This document shows positions 10,176-56,015 of a DNA stretch of 64,000 nucleotides, in pieces (the stretch's first letter is position 1; every line of letters begins with the position of its first letter). Origin of the DNA: a bacterium. GTDB lineage: Bacteria > Bacillota > Clostridia > Oscillospirales > Oscillospiraceae. A program made the translations under genes and the position numbers. The stretch covers positions 1,710 to 65,709 of the forward strand of contig CAVFTR010000010.1 of assembly GCA_963625685.1 (NCBI GenBank). The letters are read 5' to 3'. Below the pieces are notes generated by a model, which was not told the origin of the DNA, did no database searches, and saw only the letters and a program-made list of their open reading frames with translations.

Positions 10176-10190
10176 GCATTGATTTCTTGC

Positions 10191-10228
10191 GTCGCCTGAA
10201 GGATATTTTCTTTCGGGCGACTTTTTTA
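10191..10228 (+). terminator. riboswitch expression-platform terminator
   Basis: GTCGCCTGAAGG-loop-CTTTCGGGCGAC followed by TTTTTT, directly upstream of the RBS GGAGG at 10234. Confidence 0.8.
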
Positions 10229-10246
10229 ATTCCGGAGGTAATATCC

Positions 10247-38121: not shown

Positions 38122-38763
38122 TCAGCTCTGCCCCTCGGCGAATTGGCAGACCGGACGCAGTGTGCAGCGCTCGCAGCCGGGCCTTCGCGCGGTGCAGACG
38201 GCGCGGCCGTGCAGCACGATGCGGTGGCAGAAGTCGGAGCTCTTCTCCGGCGGGAGGCAGGAGCGCAGCTCGCGCTCGATCTTTTCGGGCTCCTTCAGTC
38301 CGTCGACGAGACCCAGGCGGTTGGATATGCGTATGCAGTGCGTGTCCACGACGACCGAGCCGGGCAGTCTGAATATATCGCCGAGGATGAGGTTGGCGGT
38401 CTTGCGCCCGACGCCGGGCAGCTTCAGCAGCTCGTCCATGCTCCCCGGCACCCTGCCGCCGAAATCACGCACGAGCATCTGCGCGGCGGCGACGATATCG
38501 CGGGCCTTGGCCCTGTAAAAGCCGCAGGAGCGCACGTATCGCTCGACCTCGGTCACCTCGGCCGCGGCAAAGCTCCCGAGCGTCGGGAAGCGCTCAAACA
38601 GCGCCGGCGTTATCTCGTTTACGCGCGCGTCGGTGCACTGCGCGGCAAGCCGCACGGAGAACAGGAGCTCATAGTCCTTTTTATAATCGAGCGTGCAGTC
38701 GGCGAGGGGGTAGGCCTCCTCCAGCAGCCGCACTATCTCCGAAACCTGCTGCTTTGTGCGCAT
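38122..38763 (-). CDS. nth: endonuclease III
   Basis: ORF track 38122..38979. The real start is the ATG at 38763, after GAGGTGA. HhH-GPD motif LPGVGRKTANL and C-terminal 4Fe-4S ligands C-x6-C-x2-C-x5-C are present. Confidence 0.9.
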   Translation of the reverse strand: MRTKQQVSEIVRLLEEAYPLADCTLDYKKDYELLFSVRLAAQCTDARVNEITPALFERFPTLGSFAAAEVTEVERYVRSCGFYRAKARDIVAAAQMLVRDFGGRVPGSMDELLKLPGVGRKTANLILGDIFRLPGSVVVDTHCIRISNRLGLVDGLKEPEKIERELRSCLPPEKSSDFCHRIVLHGRAVCTARRPGCERCTLRPVCQFAEGQS

Positions 38764-38854
38764 ATATATCACCTCTTCACGGTATTTTAACACATACTCG
38801 GCCGCCGCGCCACAGCAAATGCGGCCGGGCTCAAAATTTTCCGGAGGAAAACAC

Positions 38855-40114
38855 ATGTACAAGCCTCTTGCAGACGAAATAAGGCCGCGCAGCCTCGACG
38901 ATGTGGTCGGCCAGAAGCATATCCTCGGCAGCCGCGGCCTGCTGCGCCGCATAGTCGAGAGCGGCAGCGTTCCGAACATGATATTCTACGGCCCCTCTGG
39001 TACGGGCAAGACCACGGTCGCGCGCATAATCGCGGAGAAAACGAACCGCACGCTGCGCAAGCTCAACGCCACGACCGCCGGACTTTCGGATATCAAGGAG
39101 ATCATCGCCGAGCTCGACACGCTGCTGACCCCCGGCGGCGTGCTGCTGTACCTCGACGAGATACAGTATTTCAATAAAAAGCAGCAGCAGTCGCTGCTGG
39201 AGTTTATCGAGGACGGGCGCATAACGCTGATCGCCTCGACGACGGAGAACCCGTATTTCTGCGTGTTCGGCGCTATCCTCAGCCGCTCGACGGTGTTTGA
39301 GTTCAAGCCGGTAACGCCCGAAGAGGCAGAGCCGGCCGTGCTGCGCGCGTTCAGCATGCTCGCCGAACGCGAGGGCCTGTCTCCGGAGCTCGAGCCGGGC
39401 GTTGTACAGCGGATAAGCCGCTCCTGCGGCGGCGACGTGCGCAAGGCCCTAAACGCCGTGGAGCTGCTGTTTTCCGCCGCCGAGCGCGATGGGGACAGGC
39501 TGATAATAAGCCTCGCGGATGCCGATACCGTCACGCAGAAAAGCGCGATGCGCTACGACCGTGACGGCGACGAGCACTTTGACGCGCTGTCGGCGCTGAT
39601 GAAATCGCTGCGCGGCTCGGACCCGGACGCCGCGCTGCACTATCTTGCTCGGCTGCTGGAGGCCGGAGATCTTGTCGGAGCCTGCCGCAGACTGCTGTGC
39701 TCTGCCAGCGAGGATATAGGCCTTGCCTATCCGCAGGCGGTGCCCATCGTCAAGGCCTGCGTGGACTCGGCTCTGCAGCTCGGTCTGCCCGAGGCACGGC
39801 TCCCGCTCGCCGAGGCGGCTATCTTCCTTGCGACCGCGCCGAAGTCGAACAGCGTCGTCATGGCCATAGACGCCGCGATAGGCGACGTGCGCGCCGGTAA
39901 GAGCGGCCCGCCGCCGCGCGAGCTTCAGAACGTACACGCCGACGGCACGGGCTTTGAGCGCGAGCAGGGCTATAAATACCCGCACAGCTACCCTAAGCAC
40001 TGGGTGCGCCAGCAATACCTGCCGGACGCGCTCAAGGGGGCGCGCTACTACGATTACGGCGACAACAAGCTTGAGCAGACAGCCAGAAAATACTGGGACG
40101 AGATAAAAAAGTGA
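38855..40114 (+). CDS. rarA: replication-associated recombination protein A (AAA+ ATPase RarA/MgsA)
   Basis: ORF track 38756..40114. ATG at 38855 follows GGAGGAA. Contains PLADEIRPRSLDDVVGQ, Walker A GPSGTGKTT and the C-terminal MgsA block YKYPH. Confidence 0.9.
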   Translation: MYKPLADEIRPRSLDDVVGQKHILGSRGLLRRIVESGSVPNMIFYGPSGTGKTTVARIIAEKTNRTLRKLNATTAGLSDIKEIIAELDTLLTPGGVLLYLDEIQYFNKKQQQSLLEFIEDGRITLIASTTENPYFCVFGAILSRSTVFEFKPVTPEEAEPAVLRAFSMLAEREGLSPELEPGVVQRISRSCGGDVRKALNAVELLFSAAERDGDRLIISLADADTVTQKSAMRYDRDGDEHFDALSALMKSLRGSDPDAALHYLARLLEAGDLVGACRRLLCSASEDIGLAYPQAVPIVKACVDSALQLGLPEARLPLAEAAIFLATAPKSNSVVMAIDAAIGDVRAGKSGPPPRELQNVHADGTGFEREQGYKYPHSYPKHWVRQQYLPDALKGARYYDYGDNKLEQTARKYWDEIKK

Positions 40115-40124
40115 GGTGCAGATC

Positions 40125-40313
40125 ATGCCGATGGACATACGTGTCGGCGACGTGCTGACGATGAAAAAGGCGCACCCCTGCGGCGAAAAGCGCTGGCAGG
40201 TGCTGCGCATCGGCGCGGACTTCAAGCTCCGCTGCCTCGGCTGCGGCCGCGAGGTCATGGGCCCGCGCAGTAAATTCGAGAAGAATATACGGGACATAAG
40301 CCGCGCTGAATGA
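40125..40313 (+). CDS. DUF951-family small protein
   Basis: About 62 aa. MPMDIRVGDVLTMKKAHPCGEKRWQVLRIGADFKLRCLGCGR is the typical DUF951 pattern. RBS GAGGTG. Confidence 0.7.
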   Translation: MPMDIRVGDVLTMKKAHPCGEKRWQVLRIGADFKLRCLGCGREVMGPRSKFEKNIRDISRAE

Positions 40314-40378
40314 GCTGAAAAAACCGCACCCCCGATACCGGTCATCCGGCGTCGGGGGTGCATTCTTATGAGCTCAGA

Positions 40379-41542
40379 TCACTTTATATGGTTTACAACA
40401 TCCGCCCACTGCTTTGTGCGTGTGTACAGGGACTCGAGAATAGCATATTCTCTTGTGGTATGATTCCACTCGCCCTGGATGCCGCAGCTGCACAGGGACG
40501 GCACGCCGGCTATTACGGCGTAGGCCGCATCCGAGGAGCCGCCGATATGCTTGAGCGGGAAGTCGCCGAAGCCGTCCTCCACGCAGATATCGTGGACCTT
40601 CCGGTACAGTTCCATGACGCTCTCGGTGCACTCAAAGGGCAGCATCTCCATCTGATATTCCATGGTGGTCGTCGTGCCTTCGATATAGGTCTTCGCCGCA
40701 ATCTCCTCGATCTTTTTCTTTACCTTCTGCATTTCTTCGACAGAGGTCGCGCGCACGTCAAACGTCGCCTCCGCGTGGGCCGGAAACGCGCCGAAGTTCG
40801 TGCCGCCGTGGATGACGTCGACGCAGACCGTGGTGCCGACGTCGAGATTCGTAAGTGCCTGAATATCGCTGACCTTTCTGCACAGCTCTGCGATCGCGTT
40901 TCTGCCGCGTGCAAAGTCGTTTCCGGCATGTGCAGAGACGCCCTCGACATACAGCGCCACCTCGGTCTTGCCCTTACGGGAAACACAGAGGTCGCCGCCA
41001 GGCAGACCGGTTTCCATATTGAGCATGAACTCGCCGCCGCGGCAGAATTCCTCGAACTGAGCCGCGGTATTGCCGTACTTGTGCAGCTTCTCTTCATCGG
41101 GAGCAAAGCAGATCTTGAGCGGACGGCCCTCATAGCCGATCTCCTTGAGTGCCTTGCAGACATACAGCGCGATAACGATGCCGCCTTTCATATCCAGAAC
41201 GCCGGGGCCGTGGACCTTGCCCTCCTCGTCGATCTCGAAGCCGCAGGGGAAGGAGCCGGGTTTGTGAACGGTATCCATGTGGCCGCCGAATATGATGGGC
41301 TTGCCCGGACGGTCCTCTCCGAGGATGCCGGTGAGCATGTCGCCGCTTTCATCCGTGCCGACATCGCTCAGCCTGCAGCTGAAGCCGACTTCCTCGAACA
41401 GTTCCATAAGCATCCTGCCCATGGCGCGCACATCCTCCGGGGCGCTGTGGTAGCTCTCCTGCAGGATGACCCTGCGGTAGGTCTCAAGCATCTCCTCTCT
41501 GTGGGACTCGACATATGCGTTTATTTTTTCAAGATCAGTCAT
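40379..41542 (-). CDS. M20-family metallopeptidase (carboxypeptidase G2 / ArgE-DapE-ACY1-like)
   Basis: 387 aa with metal ligands in GGHMDTV, GPGVLDMKGG and APDEE. Last gene of the GRE operon. Confidence 0.85.
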   Translation of the reverse strand: MTDLEKINAYVESHREEMLETYRRVILQESYHSAPEDVRAMGRMLMELFEEVGFSCRLSDVGTDESGDMLTGILGEDRPGKPIIFGGHMDTVHKPGSFPCGFEIDEEGKVHGPGVLDMKGGIVIALYVCKALKEIGYEGRPLKICFAPDEEKLHKYGNTAAQFEEFCRGGEFMLNMETGLPGGDLCVSRKGKTEVALYVEGVSAHAGNDFARGRNAIAELCRKVSDIQALTNLDVGTTVCVDVIHGGTNFGAFPAHAEATFDVRATSVEEMQKVKKKIEEIAAKTYIEGTTTTMEYQMEMLPFECTESVMELYRKVHDICVEDGFGDFPLKHIGGSSDAAYAVIAGVPSLCSCGIQGEWNHTTREYAILESLYTRTKQWADVVNHIK

Positions 41543-41572: not shown

Positions 41573-42757
41573 TTACAGTATCTTTGAGATAAAATTCGCC
41601 AGCACGACGGAAAGCAGGGTAACATTCGTAAAGCCGGCGATGACATAGGCCGTTCCGAGCTTTTCGGAAATATGATCGCGTTCTGCATCGGTCTTGCCGA
41701 CAGCGATGGCGATCTCGTCGGAAATCAGCTGCGTACCTGGATAACCGATCATCTGGCACATTGCAATGCCCAGTGAAAGGCTTTTTGAACCGCATATCCT
41801 CCACAGCGGAGTAAAGCGGAAGGCCAGGACCAGGATGATCATGACGAACGCAAATATAACGAGCGCGTTGAAACCGATGACAGGGATCTCCGAAATGTCG
41901 ATTTTCGCCAGCGAAGGGATCATAGTGATCATGGTAAGGAAGCTGAAGAAGCCGACCGACTTCGAGTTGTCTCTCAGGAAGTGGCTGGGGACGAGGCCCA
42001 AATTCCTTGCCGCGATGCCGAGGATCATGCTCCACATCGTCTGGCCGATCCATCCGTTGGTGGCGTTGCCCAGAAGATACGCCAGGAAAACGAGCGTACC
42101 CGCGATCGCAAGGCAGACAAAGTTGCTGTAAAAGTGTATGTGCTTCTGCCAGAACAGCAGCTTCTCCTCGCCCTTTTCGGATTTGGACTCGGTTTCCGCG
42201 CTGTGATCCCGCTTGCTGTACTCCTCCATCAGCTGATTTGCGTACTTAAGGCCGCCGTTGGAGGCAGGGAGCGTGGCGACAAGCTTCTGCGTGGCATAGA
42301 TGAACGTAGCCAGCGCCGCGCAAGTCGGAAGTCCGACGTTTTCGGCCGCCGTCACCATGGTATTTGCCGCGACGACGCCGCCGGCGATTACCGGCATGCT
42401 GACGAGGGCCGACTCTCTTCCGATGATCGGAATAGCTATCGCGCAGCCCAGCACCGCCAGAAGCAGAGAGATCGTCGCCGTGAGAACGGTGCGCCATTCT
42501 TTTTTGAGCTCCGCCAGGCCGACGCTGCTGCCCATATCGACAAGGAGAAATTGCAGTCCTATTCCGGTCACGTAGGTCAGGTTTGCGGTAGTACAGATAT
42601 CGTCGGGGATAGCATGGGTCAGAAACAGGACCAGAAAAGTCGCCATGATGACAAACATCGTAGACACTTTTGCCTTCGTCAGCACCCCGATGATATCTCC
42701 GAAGGCGAATACCAGCAGGATGATGAACAGGGCTCCAAACGTTGTCAGATTCGTCAT
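41573..42757 (-). CDS. polytopic membrane protein, putative transporter (family not recognised)
   Basis: 394 aa. Two blocks of about 5-6 TM helices are separated by a charged loop (EEYSKRDHSAETESKSEKGEEK). Located 30 nt upstream of the M20 gene. Confidence 0.55.
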   Translation of the reverse strand: MTNLTTFGALFIILLVFAFGDIIGVLTKAKVSTMFVIMATFLVLFLTHAIPDDICTTANLTYVTGIGLQFLLVDMGSSVGLAELKKEWRTVLTATISLLLAVLGCAIAIPIIGRESALVSMPVIAGGVVAANTMVTAAENVGLPTCAALATFIYATQKLVATLPASNGGLKYANQLMEEYSKRDHSAETESKSEKGEEKLLFWQKHIHFYSNFVCLAIAGTLVFLAYLLGNATNGWIGQTMWSMILGIAARNLGLVPSHFLRDNSKSVGFFSFLTMITMIPSLAKIDISEIPVIGFNALVIFAFVMIILVLAFRFTPLWRICGSKSLSLGIAMCQMIGYPGTQLISDEIAIAVGKTDAERDHISEKLGTAYVIAGFTNVTLLSVVLANFISKIL

Positions 42758-42795: not shown

Positions 42796-43284
42796 TTACA
42801 TAAGGCCCATAAGGACAAGGATGAGCCGCATCAGCAGCATGCCGATAACGGAATCGAAGATCGGGACGAGGAGCATCAGCGGCTGCCTCTTGGACTCGAC
42901 GCCGCAGACCAGAACTATTCTGGAGAAGTGGCCGATCAGTGTGCCCATCAGCATGCAGGGAATGATCAGGATCGTACACTGTGCAGCGGTCAGAATGCCC
43001 TCACCGAACAGCGAGGCAGCTGCGGCAGCGCCGGCAGCCTTGGAGAAGAACGCCGACAGCAGAACGGCCGAGGCCTCGCCGGGAAGTCCGAACACGCGCA
43101 TAACAGGTCCAAAAACTACGGCCAGAATGTCCATAAGGCCGGTCAGGGTCAGAAACTGCATGACGACATAGCCGAGGATCATGGAAGGAAGAACAGTCTC
43201 GACGCCGATGTAGAAGCCTCTCTTCGCGCCGCCGAGGAAAACGTCGATAATGGGTTTTTTCTTGGTGTTTGCAGCTTCAGACAT
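42796..43284 (-). CDS. YjiG/SpmB-like nucleoside-recognition-domain membrane protein
   Basis: 162 aa. The start pattern IDVFLGGAKRGFYIGVETVLPSM is typical of YjiG/SpmB-type proteins. Located 2 nt after the YjiH-like gene. Confidence 0.65.
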   Translation of the reverse strand: MSEAANTKKKPIIDVFLGGAKRGFYIGVETVLPSMILGYVVMQFLTLTGLMDILAVVFGPVMRVFGLPGEASAVLLSAFFSKAAGAAAAASLFGEGILTAAQCTILIIPCMLMGTLIGHFSRIVLVCGVESKRQPLMLLVPIFDSVIGMLLMRLILVLMGLM

Positions 43285-43286
43285 GA

Positions 43287-43922
43287 TTAAGCCTCCTTAT
43301 TTTTCTTCTCTTCGAGAGTCAGGACAAGTCTTACAAGGTTCGCGCCCAGTATTTTGCAGAAGAACAGGACGACGATAACGGGACCGGCGGCGAAGAGGAT
43401 GATGGGAAGCAGCGCCGCCTGCGTGTTCATGGTGTTGAGAACGACCGCTGAACCGGCATACTGATATGCCGCGAAAATGGCGCGTTCCTTCTCGGTGAGC
43501 TTGCCTTCGTTGTAGAGGTCTCTGGTCATGACAGAGCCGACGTCGGAGCTGGTAAAGGAGGAAACGAATGCGATGCCGCACTCACCGGGGATACCGAGCA
43601 CCGGCCTGAGGATGGGGGTGAAGAGCTTGACGCCGGCGTCAATGGCTCCCAGCTGGGTGACGACGTCGATGATGGCGACTGCAAAGGCGATCGCGGGGAT
43701 CAGGCTGAGCGCCTGCATCATACCCTCTCTTGCGCCTGCGCCGCCCTTGCCGATGAAGTTCTGTCCGCTCTCACCTATCGTTCCCCAGGAGCCGACCAGG
43801 TTGGAGAAGTCCAGAGCCTGCAGCGGGCCGTCGACATTTTTCAGAACGCCCGAGAACATGATACAAAGGACGAGCAGCGCCAGCCAGCCTTTGATGCCTA
43901 CTTTGTTTTCTTTCTGTTCCAT
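43287..43922 (-). CDS. YjiH/SpmA-like nucleoside-recognition-domain membrane protein
   Basis: ORF track 43287..43991. The likely start is the ATG at 43922, after GAGGT. Polytopic, paired with the YjiG-like gene. Confidence 0.65.
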   Translation of the reverse strand: MEQKENKVGIKGWLALLVLCIMFSGVLKNVDGPLQALDFSNLVGSWGTIGESGQNFIGKGGAGAREGMMQALSLIPAIAFAVAIIDVVTQLGAIDAGVKLFTPILRPVLGIPGECGIAFVSSFTSSDVGSVMTRDLYNEGKLTEKERAIFAAYQYAGSAVVLNTMNTQAALLPIILFAAGPVIVVLFFCKILGANLVRLVLTLEEKKNKEA

Positions 43923-44016
43923 AGTGTACCTCAATCCTTTTTTATTATAATCATTTACACTTAACGCTGCCGCAGGCGGAAGCGCTTGCATACAGTTTTT
44001 CCGACGGAGGGAGTTC

Positions 44017-44913
44017 TCAGCGGAAATCCGCGAGCTCGACTCCCTCTTCCGCGACGATCTTCCTTAAATGCTCCATCTCCTCGGCGGAGGGACGGTAGAA
44101 CTGCTCGCTCCGGTATGGCCGGCCTATCGCTTCGTACTTTATCATCCCGAAGCTGTGATACGGCAGGAGCTCCATCCTCGCCTTCGGGATATTGGCATGC
44201 ACGAACGCGGCGGAGCGGCGGATATTGTCCTCGTCATTATTTACGCCGCCGATTACCGGGATGCGTATCACGGCCTCGCCAGGCAGCTTTTCGAGTCTTT
44301 TCATGTTCTCCAGTATCTTTTCATTGGCAAGGCCCGTATATTTTTTGTGGACCGCGCTGTCGATATGCTTGAGATCCATGAAGATCAGGTCCATCCGCTC
44401 CAGTGACTGCCTGACCGTCTCGAACTCGAAATATCCGCTGGTCTCGATCGTCATGCCGTAGCCCATGTCGTATATATGCTCTGTCAGATAGTTCAGAAAT
44501 TCCGGCTGACCGGTGGCTTCGCCGCCCGAAAAGGTGATGCCGCCGCCGCTCATTGCGTAGAACAGGCGGTGCTTCTGAACAGACTCCAGTATCTCATCGG
44601 CGTCGACCTCATACACCATAAAGCAGCGTGCATTTGTCGGGCAGACCTCGGTGCACCTGCCGCAGGCAATGCATTTATCGCGCTTCTCGTTGAGGTTTAT
44701 GCCTATGCCCTGCGGGCACACGGCCGCGCATTTGCCGCAGCCGATGCACTTGCGCTGATGCCAGCCGACCAGCGCTCTGCGGCTGAAGCCCTCGGGATTT
44801 GAGCACCATTTGCAGCGGAGCGGGCATCCGGCGAGAAATATGGTCGTCCGGATGCCGTTTCCGTCGTTGACGGAAAAGGGCTGCAGCTGCATTACATAGC
44901 CTTTTACGCTCAT
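44017..44913 (-). CDS. glycyl-radical enzyme activating protein (radical SAM, with two auxiliary 4Fe-4S motifs)
   Basis: 298 aa with radical-SAM CPLRCKWC, plus CIGCGKCAAVCP and CIACGRCTEVCP. Its start overlaps the GRE stop (TGATG). Confidence 0.9.
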   Translation of the reverse strand: MSVKGYVMQLQPFSVNDGNGIRTTIFLAGCPLRCKWCSNPEGFSRRALVGWHQRKCIGCGKCAAVCPQGIGINLNEKRDKCIACGRCTEVCPTNARCFMVYEVDADEILESVQKHRLFYAMSGGGITFSGGEATGQPEFLNYLTEHIYDMGYGMTIETSGYFEFETVRQSLERMDLIFMDLKHIDSAVHKKYTGLANEKILENMKRLEKLPGEAVIRIPVIGGVNNDEDNIRRSAAFVHANIPKARMELLPYHSFGMIKYEAIGRPYRSEQFYRPSAEEMEHLRKIVAEEGVELADFR

Positions 44914-47285
44914 CAGAACTCTCCGTGCGCGTTTCTTGCCATGATGGAATCCTGCATTTCCCTGGAGAGATTAGTGAACTGTGCCGAGTAGCCGGCGACG
45001 CGGACCAGAAGGCTCCTGTATTTCTCGGGGTTTTTCTGTGCGTCGGCCAGCACCTCGTTGGAGATGCAGTTGAACTGCACATGGAAGCCGCCGAGCGCGA
45101 AATACGACTGGAGCATCGCGCCCAGATTCGCGCGGCCTCTCCTGGTCGCGACAAGATCGTGATTGAGCCGCAGGTTCAGCAGAGTTCCGCCGCTGTGGAT
45201 ATCGTGCTCCATCTTCGCGGCGCTGCGAAGCGCTGCAAGGCAGGTCGATGTGTCCGAGCCGGTGTAGGGCGAAACGCCCTCGTTGATCGGATCCCTTGCG
45301 CGGCGGCCGTCCGGAGTCGCTCCCAGCACCTTGCCGGTAGGCAGGTAGTTGGAGATGCCCATGAAGGCCGTCACGAAGTGATTGCCGTACAGGTCCTTAT
45401 AGCCGGTGACCTCCGAATAGAAGAACTCCTCCAGCAGCCTCGCGATGGAATCGACGTAATCGTCGTCGTTGCCGTACTTGGGGCAGGCCAGCGCCTCCTG
45501 TCTGAGCTGCTCATAGCCCTCCCAATTGGCGTCGATCGCATCAATGATGTCCGAAAGCGTATATTTCTTTTCTTCAAAAACGAGTTTTTTGATGACCGCC
45601 AGAGCGTTTGCGGTAACTGACAGACCGACGCCGGTGAACACGGGCCCGATATTGTACTTTGCTCCGCCGTCCACAAGATCCCTGCCGTTTTTCATGCAGT
45701 ACTCGTTGCATACGGACATGAACGGACGGTGGCCGATCTCTCTGTGTATCTCCTGTGCGGTGACAAGAGAGATGACGCCCTGCTTTACAAGATAGCCGAA
45801 CTGCTTTTTCCATGCCTCGACGATCTCGTCAACGGACGTAAAGGTCCTGGGATCCTTTTCGGGAACGGATACCTGCTCGTTTGACAGGCGGCTCCTTCCT
45901 TCGTTGAGCGCAAACTCAAGAGCGGCGGCAAAGCTGATGCTCGCAGCGGAGGTCCACTGGAAGGTCTTTCTGGAGTGGGGCACGACACAGCCGCAGTTGT
46001 TCCAGTCCTTCGCGTCCTTTGGCTCGTAGCCGAGGTTTGAAAGCATCTGGTAGCCCGTGCGGTCGCCGTGGATCGCGGGGAAGCCGCAGCCGGTGGATAC
46101 GAGCTCCGTGACTGCCTCCATGAACTCGGGCGGGCAGTCAGGATGGATACGGCAGCTGAGCGTGGGCTGATGCGTCATGCACTCTCTGGTCGCCTGAAGC
46201 GCCATATAGGATATCGTGTTGGTCGCATCCGTGCCGTCGACCTTTGTGCCGCCGATCGTCAGGTTCTCGAAGTTTGTATAACCGGCGAAGAAGCCGGCGG
46301 TGTTCTTGGAAATGGTCCAGGCCCACTCGGAATACTTCAGCCACAGGCACTCGACATACTCGAGTGCTGAATCGTAATCGATCCTTCCGGCCTTCAGGTC
46401 CGCCTCGTAATAGGGATACATATACTGGTCAAAGCGGCCGGGGTTCCATGCCAGGGGATTTTCGGAAATGATGCCGCCCAGCTGTACGAACCACACGAAC
46501 TGTATCGCCTCGCGGAAGCTCTTTGGCGGGTTTGCGGGAACAGCGGCGCATATCCGCGCTATCTCCCCGAGCTCGGCCTTTCTCTTCGGGTCGTTCTCGG
46601 CAGCGGCCATTTCCGCCGCCTTTTCGGAATAACGGCGGCCGAGCGCCATCATGCCGTCGGCGATCAGGATAGCCGATCTGTAGAAATCTATCTTCTTTTT
46701 CTCCTCGGGGATAGCCTCGTTAAGGCCGCTTATATATTCCTCGGCCTCCTTTTTGATGCCCGCGTAGCCCTTCGGCAGCAGCACGTCGATATAGTCGGCG
46801 GATATCTCGCCAATGCCGTTTCTCCACTTGGAGTCGGTGTCAAGAAATCCGGTATCGACGCCGATCTTCCTGGTCGCCTCTGAGGTGCGCGCAAGGAAGG
46901 CTTCCTCGACGCTTTTGCCCTTCCAGTAGGGGAAGATGTTCTCGCGTATAAATTTTGTCTGCTCGGGCGTTACATCGTACGGGTCCTGTCCCCTCTCCGG
47001 GAACGTGTCGATCTCGTCATTGATCCACAGCCAGCCGAATTCCGGCGTCAGGATCGCACATTTGCGGTATTCGCCGCTCGTGCCGACGACGAGCTCGCCC
47101 TCCCATATATTCACCGACAGCTCATTGCAGGTGTCCTTGAAGGCCTGTGCGACACGTATAATGTGAGGAAGTCCTTCGGTCCTCTGAAAGGATTTCGTCC
47201 AGCTCCACGCTCTTTCGTAAGAGATATGCGGCTTTGTATTGACATAATTTTGACGGATCTTTTCCACTCTTTCCGTGATGGCCAT
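44913..47285 (-). CDS. glycyl radical enzyme, PFL2/glycerol-dehydratase-like family, substrate unknown
   Basis: ORF track 44913..47369. The likely start is the ATG at 47285 (MAITERVEKIRQNY), giving 790 aa. C-terminal glycyl-radical motif RVAGYS (Gly765). Cys loop NNCGCVVPH (Cys431/Cys433). Confidence 0.9.
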   Translation of the reverse strand: MAITERVEKIRQNYVNTKPHISYERAWSWTKSFQRTEGLPHIIRVAQAFKDTCNELSVNIWEGELVVGTSGEYRKCAILTPEFGWLWINDEIDTFPERGQDPYDVTPEQTKFIRENIFPYWKGKSVEEAFLARTSEATRKIGVDTGFLDTDSKWRNGIGEISADYIDVLLPKGYAGIKKEAEEYISGLNEAIPEEKKKIDFYRSAILIADGMMALGRRYSEKAAEMAAAENDPKRKAELGEIARICAAVPANPPKSFREAIQFVWFVQLGGIISENPLAWNPGRFDQYMYPYYEADLKAGRIDYDSALEYVECLWLKYSEWAWTISKNTAGFFAGYTNFENLTIGGTKVDGTDATNTISYMALQATRECMTHQPTLSCRIHPDCPPEFMEAVTELVSTGCGFPAIHGDRTGYQMLSNLGYEPKDAKDWNNCGCVVPHSRKTFQWTSAASISFAAALEFALNEGRSRLSNEQVSVPEKDPRTFTSVDEIVEAWKKQFGYLVKQGVISLVTAQEIHREIGHRPFMSVCNEYCMKNGRDLVDGGAKYNIGPVFTGVGLSVTANALAVIKKLVFEEKKYTLSDIIDAIDANWEGYEQLRQEALACPKYGNDDDYVDSIARLLEEFFYSEVTGYKDLYGNHFVTAFMGISNYLPTGKVLGATPDGRRARDPINEGVSPYTGSDTSTCLAALRSAAKMEHDIHSGGTLLNLRLNHDLVATRRGRANLGAMLQSYFALGGFHVQFNCISNEVLADAQKNPEKYRSLLVRVAGYSAQFTNLSREMQDSIMARNAHGEF

Positions 47286-47326: not shown

Positions 47327-47400
47327 GGTTGTGCAGAAACCGCGCTTTTTTGTGCGTTATATTGCACAACCAACATACTGCATCGTCATAAATAAGTCAA
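47327..47400 (-). promoter_or_regulatory. GRE-operon promoter plus repeated TGCACAA operator-like motif
   Basis: On the minus strand, TTGACT (47400-47395), 17-nt spacer, TATGTT (47377-47372). Immediately downstream is GGTTGTGCAatataacGCACAAaaaagcgcggtttcTGCACAACC (47371-47327), containing three motif copies and a 9-bp outer inverted repeat. Confidence 0.5.
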
Positions 47401-47561: not shown

Positions 47562-48128
47562 TTAGTCCTTATAAACCACGATGTTGACCAGCGTCGTCGT
47601 TTTATCGCTCGAATTGTGGTACATATGGGGCTGATCGGCTGCGAAGGAGATCGCGCTGCCGGGCTGTACCTCATACTTCTGTGCACCGACGAACAGCTCC
47701 AGTGTGCCCCCGAAGACGATCAGATATTCCATCGTACCTGCGGCGTGAGGCTCCGAGCTGCTGGAGGCGCCGGGGTCGAGCTCGATGTAAAGCATCTCAA
47801 AGGGCCTGTCTGCGCTGACGGGGAAATAGGGATACAGGCGCATGAGCTTATCCTCGCTCTGCATCATGTCGACATTTTCCTTGCCGACGAGCATGACGCT
47901 TTCCTGGCCGTGCTCGATCAGGGATGTGAACGGAACATGCAGGCCGGACGCGATCTTCCAGAGAGTAGAAACAGACGTATTGGTCTCAGCGCGCTCTATC
48001 TGGCCGATCATGCTCTTGCTGACTCCTGAAAGTGCGGCGAGCTGATCCATGCTTAGCTTCTGCCTCTCACGGAAGGTTTTCAAGTTGTGTGCGATGATCC
48101 CACAGACATAATCTGCATTTTCTTTCAT
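47562..48128 (-). CDS. XRE-family HTH transcriptional regulator with C-terminal cupin domain
   Basis: 188 aa. The HTH is QLAALSGVSKSMIGQIERAETNTSVSTLWKIA. The C-terminal beta-barrel region is PuuR-like in architecture. Confidence 0.85.
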   Translation of the reverse strand: MKENADYVCGIIAHNLKTFRERQKLSMDQLAALSGVSKSMIGQIERAETNTSVSTLWKIASGLHVPFTSLIEHGQESVMLVGKENVDMMQSEDKLMRLYPYFPVSADRPFEMLYIELDPGASSSSEPHAAGTMEYLIVFGGTLELFVGAQKYEVQPGSAISFAADQPHMYHNSSDKTTTLVNIVVYKD

Positions 48129-52394: not shown

Positions 52395-52982
52395 TCATTT
52401 ATCCCCGCTGCTCAGGAAGCCCTTTATGCCGCTGAAGCAGTACGTATCCAGAACGTAGGCCACGCGCTCTGGCTCCTCCTTCATGCCGTTATCCAGCCAG
52501 TACTTTACTACGGTCGATATCGAGGATACCAGAAGCCCCTTGAGGCACTCTGTCATCTGCCCGCTCAGCTCGCCCAGGACGAGTATCTCCTGCTCGAGAT
52601 AGGCGTCGGCGTGGCGGCGTATCACCTTTAGCATGGCGTCGTGATCGCCGTATGGTCCGGCAAAGACGCGGCAGAGCTCCTCGTTTTCCTTGAGAAGGCG
52701 CAGAGTCTGGAGCGAGTTGAGGCGATTGACGCCTGTCTCGCGCATTCTCCGCTCCATGGCCTCGGACAGCTGCTCCTCGAGGCTCTGCTTGAGCTCGTAG
52801 GGGTCCGAGTAGTGCGCGTAAAAGGTGCCGCGGTTTATATCCGCCTCGCGGCAGATCTCCGTAACGCTTATCTTTTCGATCGGCTTTTCGGCGAGCAGCC
52901 GCAGGAAGCCGTCCCTGATCGCCTGCTTTGTGTATCTCACGCGCCTGTCTTCTTTTTTCGGTCTGACTTTCTCCACGTTCAT
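52395..52982 (-). CDS. TetR/AcrR-family transcriptional regulator
   Basis: About 195 aa with an N-terminal TetR HTH (ISVTEICREADINRGTFYAHY). Confidence 0.85.
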   Translation of the reverse strand: MNVEKVRPKKEDRRVRYTKQAIRDGFLRLLAEKPIEKISVTEICREADINRGTFYAHYSDPYELKQSLEEQLSEAMERRMRETGVNRLNSLQTLRLLKENEELCRVFAGPYGDHDAMLKVIRRHADAYLEQEILVLGELSGQMTECLKGLLVSSISTVVKYWLDNGMKEEPERVAYVLDTYCFSGIKGFLSSGDK

Positions 52983-53137
52983 CACGTTCCTTATAATATT
53001 TTATCTGTAAAACATTTTACTATACATCCGTCCGGAAATCAACACCGTGTTTTCTTGGAGGTGCATTGACGCATATTGTGTAAGCCCGGTACCGAGGCTT
53101 CGATACCGGGCTTACGGAGATAAACATCAGACTGTCA

Positions 53138-53296
53138 TTAAAGCTTTACATTGCGCCGCTGCGAATCGTAGACCTTATTGAGCAGGGGACGGACGCCGTA
53201 GTACAGCAGCTTGTTGTCGAGATTGAACCAGTATATGAGCATGCTTGCGGGAATAACGCTCAGCATGCCGATGAGAAGCTTCCTTTTCATATGCAT
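53138..53296 (-). CDS. 52-aa single-TM peptide, translationally coupled to the dehydratase-family gene
   Basis: Below the ORF-track cutoff. The ATG overlaps the upstream stop (TGATG at 53298-53294). Sequence MHMKRKLLIGMLSVIPASMLIYWFNLDNKLLYYGVRPLLNKVYDSQRRNVKL. Confidence 0.45.
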   Translation of the reverse strand: MHMKRKLLIGMLSVIPASMLIYWFNLDNKLLYYGVRPLLNKVYDSQRRNVKL

Positions 53297-54819
53297 CACC
53301 ATCCTTCGTAATCGTCAAAGTCAACGAGGCTCGCGTCGAGCGGCTCCTCCTGCAGGACGGCGCTCATATACTCGGAGAACTGCCTGCGCATCTCGTTGCG
53401 GCTTATGGTGCGGTGGTCGAACATGTCGTTCTGCACCCAGACTAGGTGCTTATGCTTGTCCCTGGCCTGATCGTTCACTACGCCGGCCAGGCCCATCGCG
53501 CCCTTGCAGGTGATATCGTCGTAGACGAGCACGATATCGCAGTTAAACCTCTCCGCCTCGTCCCAGACCTCGAGCAGATGCTGATATCCGCCGGTGAGGT
53601 GGCGGCGCATGACGCCGCGCTCGTAGTTATGCGCGATGCCGATGAGCGCCGCGTCGAGATCGTCCTCGGGGATGATGACATTGCCGGAGAACATGTCCAT
53701 CTGCGCGGCGACGAGAACGCCCCAGCAGTTGTACGCCCAGGTGTTGAAGTCGATATAGTAGCAGCCCGGGCCGCCCCAGGTTATCATGCGGTGGCGCGCC
53801 TTGTCGAAGCTGACGACCTTGTTCCTGTACGCCTTTTCGGCGATCCTGAGCGCCTTCTTCGCGGTCTTGTCGATATAGGGGATGCTGCCGCCGGAGAAGG
53901 TGAAGTAGAAGGCGTGAAACAGCGGCGAGATGACGTGGCCGAAGGCCGAGTACTTCGTCTTTGCGTACTCCCAGACCTCGAACTCATTGCGCGCCTCCCT
54001 GTTGTGCTGCTTTATGATCTTGAAGAAGGCCTCCTCGTCGAATCTTTCGCCCGTCGTGTCCTCGATGAATTTTATGGTCTCCTTCATCTGCGCCAGGGCG
54101 TACTTGTCGGTCGCCTCGTCCTCCCAACGCATGGGTATGCCGGCCACGGTCGTGGGGATGGTGACGCGGCGCTCTATGAGCTGGCTGTTCATGGTCGAGG
54201 AGTCGCAGGGCATGTTGTTTGTTATAAGGCAGGCGCCGATCTGCGGATAGTCGTCGTTTATCGCAACGCCGGCGGCGTTCGCGCTCAGGCGGCAGGAGTC
54301 GGCGGGCAGGCCGACGTTTTCCATGATATCCATGTAAAACGGGGCGAGGTTCTGATCCATGTAGGTGCCCAGCAGTCCCTGCAGAACTTCGAGCGGCAGA
54401 GCCTTGAGCCTGGGAAAGCCCGCGACTATCTCGGGACACATGGTCTGCTCGAGCATTACGAATTTGTCCGCGTATTCCGTGTCACCGAAGCGGCGGTCGC
54501 CCTTCATGCTGTCGGCGAGCATGCCGGTCGTGCCCTTCATGATGGCGTGCATCTGCGTGTGCGAAACGCGCAGCGCGGGGCCGCGCATGCCGGCAGTGCA
54601 TTTATCGACCATGTGCAGCGCGCCGATATAGCCGCCGAACCAGCGGTATTCGAACAGTCCCTTTACTATGCGCACCGGCGATTTTGCCGCGAACTGCGCC
54701 AGTATACCGAGATTTATCGCCCACTGGGTGTAGTCATAGAAGGTGTCCTTCAGGCCGCGCCACTCGCGGTGCTTTGCGATGCCGCTTCCCTTGTAAAAGC
54801 GTTTTGCCTCGTTTGCCAT
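53296..54819 (-). CDS. 2-hydroxyacyl-CoA dehydratase / benzoyl-CoA reductase BcrBC-family protein (alpha-like, with ~130-aa N-terminal extension)
   Basis: 507 aa. The family core starts around FVMLEQTMCPEIVAGF and has conserved Cys contexts ADSCRLS, NMPCDSS and ITCKGA. Its start overlaps the upstream stop (TAATG). Confidence 0.75.
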   Translation of the reverse strand: MANEAKRFYKGSGIAKHREWRGLKDTFYDYTQWAINLGILAQFAAKSPVRIVKGLFEYRWFGGYIGALHMVDKCTAGMRGPALRVSHTQMHAIMKGTTGMLADSMKGDRRFGDTEYADKFVMLEQTMCPEIVAGFPRLKALPLEVLQGLLGTYMDQNLAPFYMDIMENVGLPADSCRLSANAAGVAINDDYPQIGACLITNNMPCDSSTMNSQLIERRVTIPTTVAGIPMRWEDEATDKYALAQMKETIKFIEDTTGERFDEEAFFKIIKQHNREARNEFEVWEYAKTKYSAFGHVISPLFHAFYFTFSGGSIPYIDKTAKKALRIAEKAYRNKVVSFDKARHRMITWGGPGCYYIDFNTWAYNCWGVLVAAQMDMFSGNVIIPEDDLDAALIGIAHNYERGVMRRHLTGGYQHLLEVWDEAERFNCDIVLVYDDITCKGAMGLAGVVNDQARDKHKHLVWVQNDMFDHRTISRNEMRRQFSEYMSAVLQEEPLDASLVDFDDYEGW

Positions 54820-56015
54820 TACATCTTACCTCCCTGAAGCTTCTTTATCTCGATGCTCTCGACAAAGGCCTGGAAGCGTGTGCGCAGCTGGCCTGCCGAT
54901 GCCATCGTGTATTCCTTCTCGACGCCGATGCAGGGTATGCCCTCGACCTCGTTCATATCGTGTACGCCCATGACGCGCTCGTAGCTCCAGAACTCGCAGA
55001 ACTTCATCTGGAGGTACAGGATGCCGTCGGCGTCATAGTCCTTGACAAGCTGCTTGAGATAGCTTCGGCGCTGGAGCTGCTTTTCCTTATTCATGAAGCG
55101 CGGGCACTCGCTCGTGGATAGATAGTGCCGCGCAGCGGCCGTGAGCGCGCTCTCGCCGTCGCGTATCTCTATCTGCTCCCTGCCGGGCAGCGAGCCGTAG
55201 CAGTAGCGGTCGGCCACGACGTACGCGCCGCAGTCCTCCAGGAGCTTTGTAAACGCCGGATCGTCTACCTCCGAGCCCGTGACGACGATGCGCGCGCGGT
55301 AATTGGGCTTGGGGTCGACCCTGCGCTTTCTGACCTCCCTGAGCGTCTCCTCGAGCTTGTCCTTTATAAGATACTGCGGGCAGCACTCGGAAACGAGCTG
55401 GATGACGTGGAACTCATAGCTCGTTATCGGCGGGTTTGGGAGCTTGCGCAGGTCGCCGAGCTCTGTTATGATGCGGCAGATCTCGTTGTGCTCCTCTATG
55501 GCCTTTCTTATCGCCCCGTCGGAGATATCGACGCCGTAGACACGCTCCAGCGGCTCGAGAATGTACTTTCTGAGCTGATTTTCATAATGCTCGTAGGCGG
55601 CCTTCGTGGTCACAAAGGGCACGTCCATCATGCTCATGAAAAACCTCGGGTTCTGCTCCTTTACGAGCCCCATGATGTCAAAATACTCATGTGCGCGGTG
55701 CATCATCTGGCAGGTCTCGGACGAGAACATGGCCGACAGGAAGTTGTAGCCGCCCTCCATGCTGCGCTCGAGCACGCTGCGCGTGAAGGGACAGGTCTTG
55801 TTTGTCATATAGTATGTGCCGATATCGGTGTTGGCCGTCCCCGGGGCGCGCAGGCGCACAGAGAAGCAGCCGCCGAGATTGAGCAGTACCTCGGGCACGA
55901 AATAGCAGGTGTAGCCCAGAGCAAGCCTTCCCTCCCCGGAGGCCTGCTTTACCAGCTCGTTATTCGCGTCCTGGAGCAGGTCTTCAAAATAGATGAGGTG
56001 CTTTAAGTCTTTCAT
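54819..56015 (-). CDS. 2-hydroxyacyl-CoA dehydratase-family protein (beta-like)
   Basis: 398 aa with LALGYTCYFVPEVLLNLGGCFSVRL, typical of the HgdB/HadC-type N-terminus. RBS GAGGAGGA. Confidence 0.75.
   Translation of the reverse strand: MKDLKHLIYFEDLLQDANNELVKQASGEGRLALGYTCYFVPEVLLNLGGCFSVRLRAPGTANTDIGTYYMTNKTCPFTRSVLERSMEGGYNFLSAMFSSETCQMMHRAHEYFDIMGLVKEQNPRFFMSMMDVPFVTTKAAYEHYENQLRKYILEPLERVYGVDISDGAIRKAIEEHNEICRIITELGDLRKLPNPPITSYEFHVIQLVSECCPQYLIKDKLEETLREVRKRRVDPKPNYRARIVVTGSEVDDPAFTKLLEDCGAYVVADRYCYGSLPGREQIEIRDGESALTAAARHYLSTSECPRFMNKEKQLQRRSYLKQLVKDYDADGILYLQMKFCEFWSYERVMGVHDMNEVEGIPCIGVEKEYTMASAGQLRTRFQAFVESIEIKKLQGGKM

Follow-up and report, generated by a model that had tools for sequence, protein, structure and literature searches.

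The window, that is, the whole stretch of 64,000 nucleotides analysed, carries on its minus strand an operon consisting of genes for a glycyl radical enzyme (GRE), its activase, two Gate-domain proteins, a further membrane protein and an M20 amidohydrolase. The features of the locus are as follows:

47562–48128, minus strand: HTH_3 plus Cupin_2 (PuuR-like) regulator upstream of the GRE gene (Pfam; 29 of the 53 family locus groups contain it)
47372–47400, minus strand: promoter-like TTGACT-17-TATGTT 5' of the GRE gene (consensus match only)
44913–47285, minus strand: GRE gene, 790 amino acids, PFL-like barrel plus Gly_radical domain (translation, Pfam, CutC match, AF2/Foldseek)
44017–44913, minus strand: GRE-activating radical SAM enzyme, 298 amino acids (NCBIfam TIGR02494, 311.6 bits against a cut-off of 174)
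43287–43991 and 42796–43284, minus strand: two Gate-domain (YjiH/YjiG-like) membrane proteins, a putative transporter pair (Pfam PF07670; the second also NCBIfam PRK10519, 178.9 bits)
41573–42757, minus strand: polytopic membrane protein of 394 amino acids (translation; in 4 family locus groups; no match in Pfam, NCBIfam or PDB)
40379–41542, minus strand: M20A metallo-amidohydrolase resembling carboxypeptidase G2, encoded at the end of the operon (PF01546, PF07687; nearest solved structure CPG2, 1e-23, full length)
40172–40193, minus strand: terminator-like hairpin and T-run downstream of the M20 gene (consensus match only)

Besides the regulator, annotated genes nearby encode EF-P, an M24 peptidase, RarA and Nth. 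An ORF at 39449–40363 (minus strand) was considered as a seventh operon gene and rejected, as it is an Arg-rich antisense ORF within the RarA/MgsA gene. An Rfam scan revealed no riboswitch near the operon, the sole match being an FMN riboswitch 35 kb away. Public sequencing runs yielded nothing usable concerning expression, the matches being coded DNA and contig holders and host-type RNA runs.

The GRE reading frame starts with an ATG at 47285, immediately preceded by the purine-rich, Shine-Dalgarno-like GGAAAGGAAG, and ends with a TGA at 44915–44913 on the minus strand, giving a product of 790 residues. It matches PF02901 (4.5e-203) and PF01228 (3.9e-31), and its best solved relative is CutC (phmmer, 2e-208). 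An AF2 model calculated from a 101-sequence alignment reached a pLDDT of 95.9 and a Foldseek TM score of 0.98 against CutC; a shallow set of 78–93% identical homologues gave a pLDDT of 58 and was discarded. Pfam, AF2 and Foldseek agree on the architecture of the superfamily, a ten-stranded PFL-like barrel followed by a C-terminal glycyl radical domain. Two elements within the gene are central to what follows:

44985–45002, minus strand: glycyl radical motif R762-V-A-G765-Y-S767 (translation, model hairpin, CutC alignment)
45972–46001, minus strand: Cys finger loop N429-N-C431-G-C433-V-V435-P-H437-S438 (codons, alignment, model hairpin, invariance)

The glycyl radical motif conforms to R-V-x-G-[FWY], sits on a hairpin formed by residues 760–762 and 767–769 in the AF2 model, is invariant in the family and places G765 on CutC G821. 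The dedicated activase contains C30-x3-C34-x2-C37 (CX3CX2C) together with a pair of ferredoxin-type Cys motifs. The beginning of its gene overlaps the stop codon of the GRE gene, such that the two are translationally coupled, and tblastn finds it adjoining the GRE gene in 51 of 53 locus groups. Taken together, fold, Gly loop, Cys loop and activase gene show that the protein belongs to the PFL-like branch of the GRE superfamily.

With its preceding residue, the Cys loop reads W428-N-N-C431-G-C433-V-V435-P-H437. Its codons run from N429 (46001–45999), N430 (45998–45996), C431 (TGC, 45995–45993) and G432 (45992–45990) through C433 (TGT, 45989–45987), V434 (45986–45984) and V435 (GTG, 45983–45981) to P436 (45980–45978), H437 (45977–45975) and S438 (45974–45972). 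These positions bear out the numbering C431/C433/V435 proposed earlier from the DNA; the interval then given for the loop, 45975–45998, encodes N430 to H437 (NCGCVVPH) only, with NNCGCVVPHS spanning 45972–46001. Alignment with CutC (MGCVEPQ), HpyG (8ID1) and HpzG (8IOF, both CGCVE) requires no gap before or within the loop, the sole gap being one residue after H437. C433 falls on CutC C489, C431 falls on Met487 of the same enzyme, and in the model (pLDDT 95.9) residues 429–431 and 435–437 form a beta-hairpin with G432-C433-V434 at its tip, where the catalytic Cys of a GRE is located. The loop had thus been correctly assigned, as opposed to a GCxE motif aligning elsewhere; C433 is the putative thiyl radical Cys and V435 occupies the position of the CXE glutamate.

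The central claim of the sequence-only reading, valine at the position of the loop Glu, is therefore confirmed by alignments to sequences of crystal structures and by a model that superposes on CutC. Instead of C-x-E the protein has C433-V434-V435, and, as had also been stated, it contains neither CXE nor the Cys-Cys pair of PFL. The residues given there for comparison (glycerol dehydratase C433/E435, CutC C489/E491, HPAD C503/E505, and HypD and IslA) agree with the literature, according to which CXE is kept in all eliminases and isomerases and a two-Cys motif is known only in PFL and TdcE (2026 GRE review). Two traits that had been presented as setting the protein apart proved to be more widespread. 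Two cysteines separated by glycine are also present in HpyG and HpzG, which are dehydratases of the ordinary kind (C-G-C-V-E). Glu at Cys+2 is missing as well from about 30 of the 150 clusters, formed at 50% identity, that lie nearest to the family; these uncharacterised GREs carry Q, H, T, S, N, A, G, R, D or Y instead.

This comparison bears directly on a mechanism in which C431 acts together with C433, be it as a second thiyl or covalent site as in PFL, as a redox partner or as a hydrogen donor on the opposite face. C431 is invariant, lies opposite V435 on the modelled hairpin and corresponds to a Met that was part of the largest QM region in a QM/MM study of CutC, i.e., near the substrate. 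However, HpyG and HpzG share C-G-C and yet perform ordinary C-x-E dehydratase chemistry, the PFL pair is adjacent (C418-C419), with C418 aligning with G432 and not with C431, and conservation of C431 is little informative because the whole loop is invariant. We consider a two-cysteine mechanism improbable.

The invariance extends far beyond this genome. All of the approximately 60 family loci, which come from several phyla and share 51–95% identity, encode CGCVVPH, and the motif is unchanged in 45 of 45 distinct family proteins (51–95% identity) as well as in the 120 top-ranking homologues from the database; the survey of homologues that had been suggested thus found it in every family member examined. 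V435 is kept across 61 distinct DNA contexts in which GTA, GTT, GTG and GTC are all used, so that the valine is neither a sequencing error nor a one-off, and the synonymous variation at this codon points to purifying selection. A single base change would convert GTG to GAG. A degenerate, non-catalytic GRE homologue or an artefact at codon 435 might be suspected from a few interrupted family copies elsewhere, namely in Terrisporobacter petrolearius (in-frame TGA), an Acholeplasmataceae MAG (in-frame TAA) and Anaeroglobus geminatus (frameshift), but this is contradicted by 204 invariant positions out of 790, among them G765, C433 and the whole pocket, by the codon variation at V435 and by the adjacent activase, and it must be judged extremely improbable.

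In a neighbor-joining distance tree, calculated without support values, the family is monophyletic and is placed among eliminases; its successive sister groups all carry C-x-E, which indicates that the loss of Glu is derived. The nearest neighbours outside the family (at most 39% identity) are C-x-E proteins as well. No NCBIfam model covers the protein, whose scores remain under the threshold of each equivalog and also of the PFL2 subfamily model. Searches of the literature revealed no characterised GRE of the CGCVVPH type, nor does the 2026 GRE review name any C-V-V enzyme. A preprint on a metallo-bile-salt hydrolase turned out to be unrelated to the family. Invariant loop, monophyly and the lack of any PDB or NCBIfam representative thus agree with the earlier suggestion of a discrete conserved clade without a characterised member.

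Might the protein nonetheless be a known enzyme that scores badly, such as a divergent choline TMA-lyase or a diol, glycerol or hydroxyproline dehydratase? CutC (5FAU, 5A0U) is its top match in PDB and NCBIfam and its closest relative overall (37–39% identity, TM 0.98, rmsd 1.2–1.4 Å over about 790 columns), the two folds being nearly superimposable. The Gly loop, the G-C of the Cys loop, an acidic side chain at the position of D216 and the possession of its own PFL2-type activase are common to both. On the other hand, the protein reaches 710 bits against a cut-off of 1050 for the CutC equivalog TIGR04394, and of the choline-binding and catalytic residues Y208, D216, T334, E491, T502, Y506 and F395 only T502 and F395 are kept, so that choline-binding D216, Y208, Y506 and T334 are all replaced along with catalytic E491. 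Glu491 has been shown by mutagenesis to be catalytically essential in CutC (2026 GRE review), and in HypD the E436Q exchange abolishes activity (PMC7077986). A known activity is therefore very improbable.

HpyG and HpzG, N-methyl-cis-4-hydroxyproline dehydratases, give the closest match locally, in the region of the Cys loop (34–37% identity, TM 0.97–0.98); both start with C-G-C-V and continue with Glu where the family has Val, and this Glu437 hydrogen-bonds the substrate (2026 GRE review). The source of HpyG, Intestinibacter bartlettii, also encodes a member of the CGCVVPH family. Fold and length are shared with the B12-independent dehydratases of glycerol (GD, 1R8W), propanediol (PD, 5I2G/9RCO) and hydroxyproline (HypD, 6VXC) at 32–36% identity, and the thiyl Cys has a near-identical number (GD C433, HypD C434). 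In HypD, two essential residues, His160 and the loop's Glu436, are 2.5 Å apart (PMC7077986). The pair His160/Glu436 has become E160/V435 in our protein, and HypD D278 has become Leu or a neighbouring residue, this last equivalence resting on residue numbering.

More distant GREs demonstrate, by analogy, that glycyl radical chemistry can proceed without Glu at Cys+2. PFL and TdcE have adjacent cysteines, whereas our protein has G432-C433 and an extra Cys at position -2; PFL binds CoA and is far away in sequence (3e-33; 138 bits against a cut-off of 994 for TIGR01255). X-succinate synthases lack the Cys-loop Glu and do not perform eliminations; they are distant (TutD 3e-86, MasD 2.8e-89) and possess small accessory subunits, in contrast to our locus, where no small ORFs lie between the GRE and activase genes. 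Arylacetate decarboxylases (HPAD, IAD, PAD, AAD) are matched with partial coverage and far below threshold (NF033715, 340 versus 1150 bits; NF033718, 377 versus 1100 bits), and HPAD itself is distant (3.5e-67). In PAD, the thiyl Cys is Cys482, which places Gln484 at Cys+2, and Gln484 has been reported to be essential. None of PFL/TdcE, X-succinate synthases and PAD has a valine at Cys+2 in a CutC-like pocket. The valine in place of the relatives' Glu probably signifies new or differently assisted chemistry.

For residues in or near the pocket, the following codons were located:

46806–46808, minus strand: E160 (GAG; CutC alignment, invariant in 45 of 45 family sequences)
46827–46832, minus strand: S152-K153, aligned with CutC Y208-H209 (within an invariant D-x-D-S-K-W-R just before strand beta1)

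Compared with CutC, the pocket shows the changes Y208 to S152, Y506 to S449, T334 to L278, E491 to V435, D216 to E160 and M487 to C431, while CutC F389, F395 (F339 here), T502 (T445 here) and I700 are retained. New here is that invariant E160 on strand beta1 is the sole carboxylate left in the canonical pocket; no other aligned CutC pocket position carries one. It aligns with CutC D216 at the beta1 site, a common point of substrate contact (IslA Q193, HypD H160 and the CutC D216 equivalent; PMC8473560), and the residue found there is polar and acidic, of a type seen in few relatives. In a comparison of 142 sequences, 79 of the approximately 97 C-x-E relatives have His at position 160, V435 is paired with E160 in 11 of 11 family members, and Glu160 occurs in just one other cluster without the loop Glu, so that proteins lacking the loop Glu do not generally show such a 'swap'. 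Judging from homologous crystal structures only, E160 may reach the substrate or the vacated Glu site. The sequence-only reading had envisaged a general base supplied from elsewhere, and for this role E160 is a candidate. Near the thiyl Cys, the pocket wall is invariant and of hydrophobic character (V435, L278, C431, M642, I644), and the pocket as a whole appears to be larger than that of CutC and more hydrophobic on its Cys-loop side.

The interpretation we favour, and to which we would assign about an even chance of being right, is an active GRE family that arose from the CutC/dehydratase C-x-E lineage, exchanged its loop Glu for an invariant Val and may rely on assistance by E160, with an amine-type substrate as a guess. 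The activase would generate the radical on G765, from which C433 would be oxidised to the thiyl radical, and C433 would then abstract hydrogen from the substrate, a small polar molecule held in the enlarged pocket. Any proton transfer or charge pairing would be mediated by invariant E160 on strand beta1 and not by the Cys loop; elsewhere this site is occupied by a His contacting the loop Glu (in most C-x-E relatives) or by an Asp pairing with an ammonium group (in CutC). If the substrate is, as we guess, of the amine or amino-acid type, E160 would bind or deprotonate its nitrogen. Chemically, this would amount to an elimination or to a ring or chain cleavage for which no hydroxyl-directed base is needed, and the product radical would finally regain a hydrogen from C433. 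The earlier proposal of a mechanistically distinct subclass remains a reasonable hypothesis.

Alternatively, E160 may serve for binding only, and the family may be a new GRE class with base-free radical chemistry, i.e., isomerisation (mutase or epimerase), C-C cleavage or decarboxylation, or addition. This would suit the invariant hydrophobic lining on the thiyl-Cys side and the fact that PFL and X-succinate synthases, which do not catalyse eliminations, manage without the loop Glu. The same Glu is retained in all eliminases and isomerases (2026 GRE review). Neither microcompartment shell nor aldehyde dehydrogenase genes were found in the GRE neighbourhood, which differs in this respect from the cut cluster with its shell and aldehyde-processing genes and from many other aldehyde-forming eliminases. 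Against base-free chemistry, the family branches from within the C-x-E enzymes and has CutC as its closest match (TM 0.98, 38% identity), it keeps two components of the CutC polar network, T445 (T502 in CutC) and an acid at the position of D216, and the operon lacks accessory subunits of the X-succinate synthase type. We regard this alternative as rather unlikely. Returning to E160, we tentatively suggest, as a possibility well short of probable, that the family catalyses a new class of GRE reaction, in which a CutC-like fold without a Cys-loop carboxylate acts on an amine or amino-acid-type metabolite, either by nitrogen-directed elimination with the acid/base function moved to E160 or as a true isomerase, mutase or epimerase. 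In some lineages, the M20 hydrolase might release this metabolite from an N-acyl-glutamate-like or peptide conjugate.

Information about the genetic environment was collected by tblastn from 10-kb neighbourhoods in 53 locus groups, because clustering of longest ORFs had picked antisense ORFs in some loci (in one cluster, c34, the antisense of M20). The question of whether the loop co-occurs with the operon received a divided answer: the unit of regulator, GRE and activase is conserved, and stands alone at many loci, but the remaining context is heterogeneous. The Gate pair lies beside the GRE gene in 7 locus groups. An orthologue of the M20A protein is found within 10 kb in 11 groups from distant taxa, and an M20A (CPG2-like) or M20D gene in 14 of 53 (Oscillospiraceae, Negativicutes, Bacteroidaceae); M20 linkage is thus a feature of a minority of loci. 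Loci with an amidohydrolase often also encode a membrane transporter, the type of which differs between lineages. In the proposed pathway, the substrate would be imported through such lineage-specific transporters, and at about a quarter of the loci the neighbouring M20 amidohydrolase would free it from an N-acyl or peptide conjugate.

Other substrates were considered, namely taurine or another beta-substituted ethylamine, glutamate, and a betaine without hydroxyl group, as was a keto-acid formate-lyase-like reaction prompted by ilvA and ilvE in Mogibacterium-type genomes. There, ilvA/ilvE/leuBD are neighbours of the GRE gene, a linkage confined to that one lineage, and a threonine-aldolase-like gene lies nearby in two lineages; these neighbours indicate no single direction. 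Genes for the handling of sulfite or CoA are absent from the conserved neighbourhood.

GREs are responsible for host-relevant reactions in the gut, such as the formation of TMA from choline, of H2S precursors, of p-cresol and of skatole, and new GRE functions have mostly emerged from sequence clusters with active sites unlike the known ones. An exchange this strictly conserved, at a position whose residue is reported to be essential in both CutC and HypD, poses a testable question: can a CutC-type scaffold work without the loop Glu, and what replaces it? There is also a practical side, since surveys of TMA potential by sequence similarity could miscount the family because its best database match is CutC; E491V, D216E, Y208S and Y506S provide a simple filter separating the two. 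Cultured carriers include Intestinibacter bartlettii DSM 16795, Anaerotignum lactatifermentans, Clostridium sp. MD294, Sedimentibacter hydroxybenzoicus and Lucifera butyrica. Gut and rumen metagenomes commonly contain the family, one 90%-identity cluster having been found on 130 contigs and other family clusters of this kind comprising hundreds to more than 1000 member sequences.

The longest minus-strand open reading frame spanning the site where the sequence-only reading had reported Val instead of Glu two residues after the catalytic cysteine runs from 47369 to 44913 in the ORF listing of the window. Translation from the ATG at 47285, which has a Shine-Dalgarno-like stretch (GGAAAGGAAG) on its 5' side, yields a protein of 790 residues with a full PFL-like domain (Pfam, 4.5e-203), a glycine-radical domain (3.9e-31) and the C-terminal sequence R762-V-A-G765-Y-S. 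Among sequences of solved structures, this glycyl radical enzyme (GRE) best matches choline trimethylamine-lyase (CutC, 2e-208), the N-methyl-cis-4-hydroxyproline dehydratase HpyG (8ID1, 6e-177) and glycerol dehydratase (GD, 2.6e-154), with further matches to HpzG (8IOF), propanediol dehydratase (PD, 9RCO) and hydroxyproline dehydratase (HypD). No NCBIfam model reached its curated cut-off for the protein (CutC 710 versus 1050, PFL2 subfamily 624 versus 678), and the public names of its homologues are generic ('glycyl radical protein', 'formate C-acetyltransferase/glycerol dehydratase family'). Codon-by-codon translation placed the Cys loop as follows:

46001-45999, minus strand, N429 codon
45995-45993, minus strand, C431 codon
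45992-45990, minus strand, G432 codon
45989-45987, minus strand, C433 codon (putative thiyl-radical Cys)
45986-45984, minus strand, V434 codon
45983-45981, minus strand, V435 codon, GTG
45980-45978, minus strand, P436 codon
45977-45975, minus strand, H437 codon
45974-45972, minus strand, S438 codon

The interval 45975-45998 indeed lies in the Cys loop, its codons reading NCGCVVPH, and the residue numbers originally given for C431, C433 and V435 are correct when counted from ATG 47285. In an alignment of a 77-residue fragment, DWNNCGCVVPH of the GRE stands against DYCLMGCVEPQ of Klebsiella pneumoniae CutC, NWNPCGCVETN of HpyG and DWTPCGCVETN of HpzG, without gaps before and across the loop and with one 1-residue gap after H437. 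Full-length alignment to D. alaskensis CutC, whose numbering was verified at Y208, D216, T334, F389, F395, T502 and Y506, pairs C433 with C489 and V435 with E491. An AlphaFold2 model (101-sequence alignment as input, mean pLDDT 95.9) predicts a hairpin of strands 429-431 and 435-437 with G432-C433-V434 at its tip, and places G765 on a second hairpin (760-762/767-769). Foldseek superposes this model on CutC (TM 0.98, rmsd 1.2-1.4 Å, about 790 columns) and on PD, GD, HpzG, HpyG and HypD (TM 0.96-0.98), so that the sequence alignment is in effect a structural one. Given the ungapped alignment to crystal-structure sequences and the modelled hairpin, the loop had been assigned correctly, and a G-C-x-E motif aligned nowhere else.

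Since the Val codon GTG is one base apart from the Glu codon GAG, a single read error needed to be excluded. The 120 top-ranking database homologues, at 78-93% identity, without exception keep WNNCGCVVPH, and a search through GTDB with each species represented by one genome retrieved about 55 loci with 51-95% identity, all of which, where the loop is readable, encode W-[NS]-N-C-G-C-V-V-P-H; this answers the question, posed with the initial observation, of how widely CGCVVP is shared. The closest locus stems from Oscillospiraceae/Dysosmobacter (95% identity), and others occur in Mogibacterium, Anaerovoracaceae, Anaerotignum, Sedimentibacter, Intestinibacter bartlettii, Terrisporobacter, a Clostridioides difficile assembly, Megasphaera, Anaeroglobus, Pelosinus, Lucifera, Bacteroidaceae, Synergistaceae and Deltaproteobacteria. 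Four different codons specify V435 in 61 distinct DNA contexts: GTT (19), GTA (18), GTG (18) and GTC (6); the flanking codons likewise differ synonymously. The 45 distinct full-length family proteins share 204 invariant positions out of 790, the entire Cys loop among them; below the family, identity falls sharply to 39% or less, and other loop sequences start there. Translation, alignments and conservation thus uphold the Glu-less loop with Val at Cys+2. A few interrupted orthologues in other genomes could be cited for a non-functional enzyme or a read error, but this conservation contradicts both and makes them hardly credible. The interrupted orthologues, which are pseudogenes or assembly errors, carry an in-frame TGA at the invariant D383 position (Terrisporobacter petrolearius JCM 19845), an in-frame TAA at Y591 (an Acholeplasmataceae MAG) and a frameshift near residue 264 (Anaeroglobus geminatus F0357).

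A neighbour-joining distance tree of 142 sequences, calculated without support values, shows the family as monophyletic with successive sister groups that are all C-x-E, which points to a derived loss of Glu within the eliminase-type radiation. C-x-E had been named as the rule for characterised eliminases and decarboxylases, and a 2026 review (Drennan and Andorfer laboratories) bears this out: the motif is kept in all six C-O eliminases, CutC, three C-S lyases and three isomerases, its Glu is hydrogen-bonded to the substrate in eliminases, lyases and isomerases, and Glu491 of CutC is catalytically essential by mutagenesis. HPAD and IAD also have Glu at this position, and E436Q abolishes HypD activity (PMC7077986). 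According to the IAD structure paper, the Glu carboxylate of CXE enzymes additionally hydrogen-bonds Cys-loop backbone amides. Literature and structure searches found no Val at Cys+2 among characterised or solved GREs. The C-G-C arrangement, also stressed in the sequence-only reading, is present but not distinctive, because HpyG and HpzG share it as C-G-C-V-E, with Glu where the family has Val, and perform ordinary dehydratase chemistry. The identical C-G-C in these two enzymes weakens a two-Cys mechanism with participation of C431, which we consider improbable; C431 aligns with CutC Met487, near the active site, and not with PFL Cys418. When relatives were clustered at 50% identity, roughly 30 of the 150 nearest representatives carried a residue other than Glu at Cys+2, namely Q, H, T, S, N, A, G, R, D or Y. 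Uncharacterised GREs already include many Glu-less loops, of which the family is a well-defined, abundant example.

Active-site residues of CutC listed in a QM/MM study were transferred to the GRE through the full-length D. alaskensis alignment. Y208, H209, D216, T334, F389 and F395 correspond to S152, K153, E160, L278, F333 and F339, and M487, C489, E491, T502, Y506, L698 and I700 to C431, C433, V435, T445, S449, M642 and I644. Of these residues only S449 varies among the 45 family proteins (S, N or T); the rest are invariant. Compared with CutC, the family retains both Phe, the Thr and the Ile, is hydrophobic beside the thiyl Cys (V435, L278) and has Ser in place of both Tyr, which suggests a roomier pocket. 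With the choline-binding and catalytic residues replaced and scores under curated thresholds, it is very unlikely that a known activity is present in disguise. E160 is the one carboxylate left among the mapped positions. It lies on strand beta1, at a common substrate-contacting site (IslA Q193, CutC D216, HypD H160; PMC8473560); in HypD, H160 is 2.5 Å from E436 (PMC7077986). In the 142-sequence alignment, C-x-E occurs with His in this column in 79 cases, and V435 is paired with E160 in every family member. Judged by these homologous crystal structures, E160 would be the obvious candidate for any acid/base or charge-pairing role vacated by the loop Glu. A cluster representative 34% identical to the GRE (P0164) has the loop V-G-C-T-Q-P-H, sharing the P-H after the loop with the family, and is the sole other Glu-less relative in that alignment to carry a beta1 Glu; it may stand for a second lineage whose active site is arranged similarly.

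We see an even chance that a normal GRE relay operates in this CutC-like pocket: the G765 radical would generate the C433 thiyl, which would abstract hydrogen from the substrate and later return it, while E160 would have taken over proton or charge handling from the Cys loop, and the group handled would be other than the hydroxyl acted on by C-x-E enzymes. The main alternative, possible if rather unlikely, is carboxylate-free chemistry, for example isomerase, mutase or epimerase activity, cleavage of a C-C bond or an addition. From the original proposal of a mechanistically distinct subclass, a distinct, conserved, uncharacterised clade without the catalytic Glu stands, and its chemistry may be either new or differently assisted. 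The family is a target for enzyme discovery, and cultured carriers exist.

The GRE gene is accompanied by the following features:

48128-47562, minus strand, HTH_3 and Cupin_2 regulator upstream of the GRE (Pfam)
47400-47372, minus strand, promoter-like site ahead of the GRE (consensus match)
44913-44017, minus strand, PFL2-type GRE-activating enzyme (TIGR02494, 311.6 bits versus cut-off 174), start overlapping the GRE stop
43991-43287 and 43284-42796, minus strand, two Gate-domain (YjiH/YjiG-like) membrane proteins (Pfam/NCBIfam)
42757-41573, minus strand, 394-residue polytopic membrane protein without Pfam, NCBIfam or PDB match
41542-40379, minus strand, M20 metallohydrolase, closest solved relative carboxypeptidase G2 (1e-23)
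40193-40172, minus strand, terminator-like hairpin after the M20 gene (consensus match)

The operon genes lie head to tail with gaps of at most 38 bases, and the activase carries C30-x3-C34-x2-C37 and two ferredoxin-like Cys motifs. An Arg-rich ORF of 304 residues directly after the M20 gene (39449-40363, minus strand) was rejected as an apparent operon member; it is antisense to RarA/MgsA (38756-40114, plus strand), has no family or structure match and is thus probably not a gene. Loci were grouped at 95% identity, and the neighbourhoods of the resulting 53 groups, 40 of them with usable flanks, were compared by tblastn over as much as 10 kb to either side of the GRE. Co-occurrence of the loop with this operon holds for the activase (51 of 53) and is partial for the rest: an M20A orthologue is found in 11 groups (Oscillospiraceae, Veillonellaceae/Sporomusaceae, Bacteroidaceae), the Gate pair in seven and the HTH-cupin regulator in 29, with a GntR regulator in eight others. 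Three further groups have an M20D amidohydrolase, two a threonine-aldolase-like PLP enzyme and two enolase-superfamily racemase/epimerase-like genes. Downstream genes encode an SBP_bac_1 ABC transporter and a LacI regulator in Treponema and a Mem_trans permease in Anaerotignum; Clostridium sp. MD294 has regulator, GRE and activase only. No microcompartment shell or aldehyde dehydrogenase genes were seen beside the GRE in the family loci examined. We read the functional unit as one regulated enzyme plus activase working on a small imported molecule, which a sizeable minority of lineages probably release from an N-acyl or peptide conjugate; our guess is a substrate of amine or amino-acid type.

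In Mogibacterium/Anaerovoracaceae (L009-L014, L049, L050) the GRE-activase pair lies directly 3' of leuD-leuB-DUF815-ilvA-ilvE or an aspartate kinase gene, an unexplained tie to threonine, 2-oxobutyrate and branched-chain amino-acid genes. The threonine-aldolase-like gene adjoins the GRE in Anaerotignum (L006) and Anaeroglobus (L056). The 394-residue membrane protein is kept beside the GRE in Dysosmobacter-type loci and also in that of C. difficile HC132, and may therefore represent an unannotated transporter family.

Elsewhere in the window, an HGD-D (2-hydroxyacyl-CoA dehydratase-like) gene pair near a class-III aminotransferase gene (53296-54819, 54819-56015 and 57243-58751, all minus strand), adjoined by a TetR regulator (52395-52985), is another oxygen-sensitive radical-type enzyme system; no activator gene for it was identified in the window. 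A type IIL restriction-modification enzyme of the MmeI family is divided over two consecutive minus-strand ORFs (33919-34779 and 34806-36707), one with MmeI_N, helicase spacer and methyltransferase and the other with MmeI_TRD and MmeI_C; as 27 bases separate them, the gene may be interrupted or a two-part variant. One riboswitch was found:

10061-10175, plus strand, FMN riboswitch (Rfam RF00050, 105.5 bits)

It stands directly 5' of an ECF-transporter S-component gene (PF12822, ORF 10121-10999, plus strand), presumably for a riboflavin transporter, and because the listed start at 10121 overlaps the aptamer, the gene itself probably begins further 3'.
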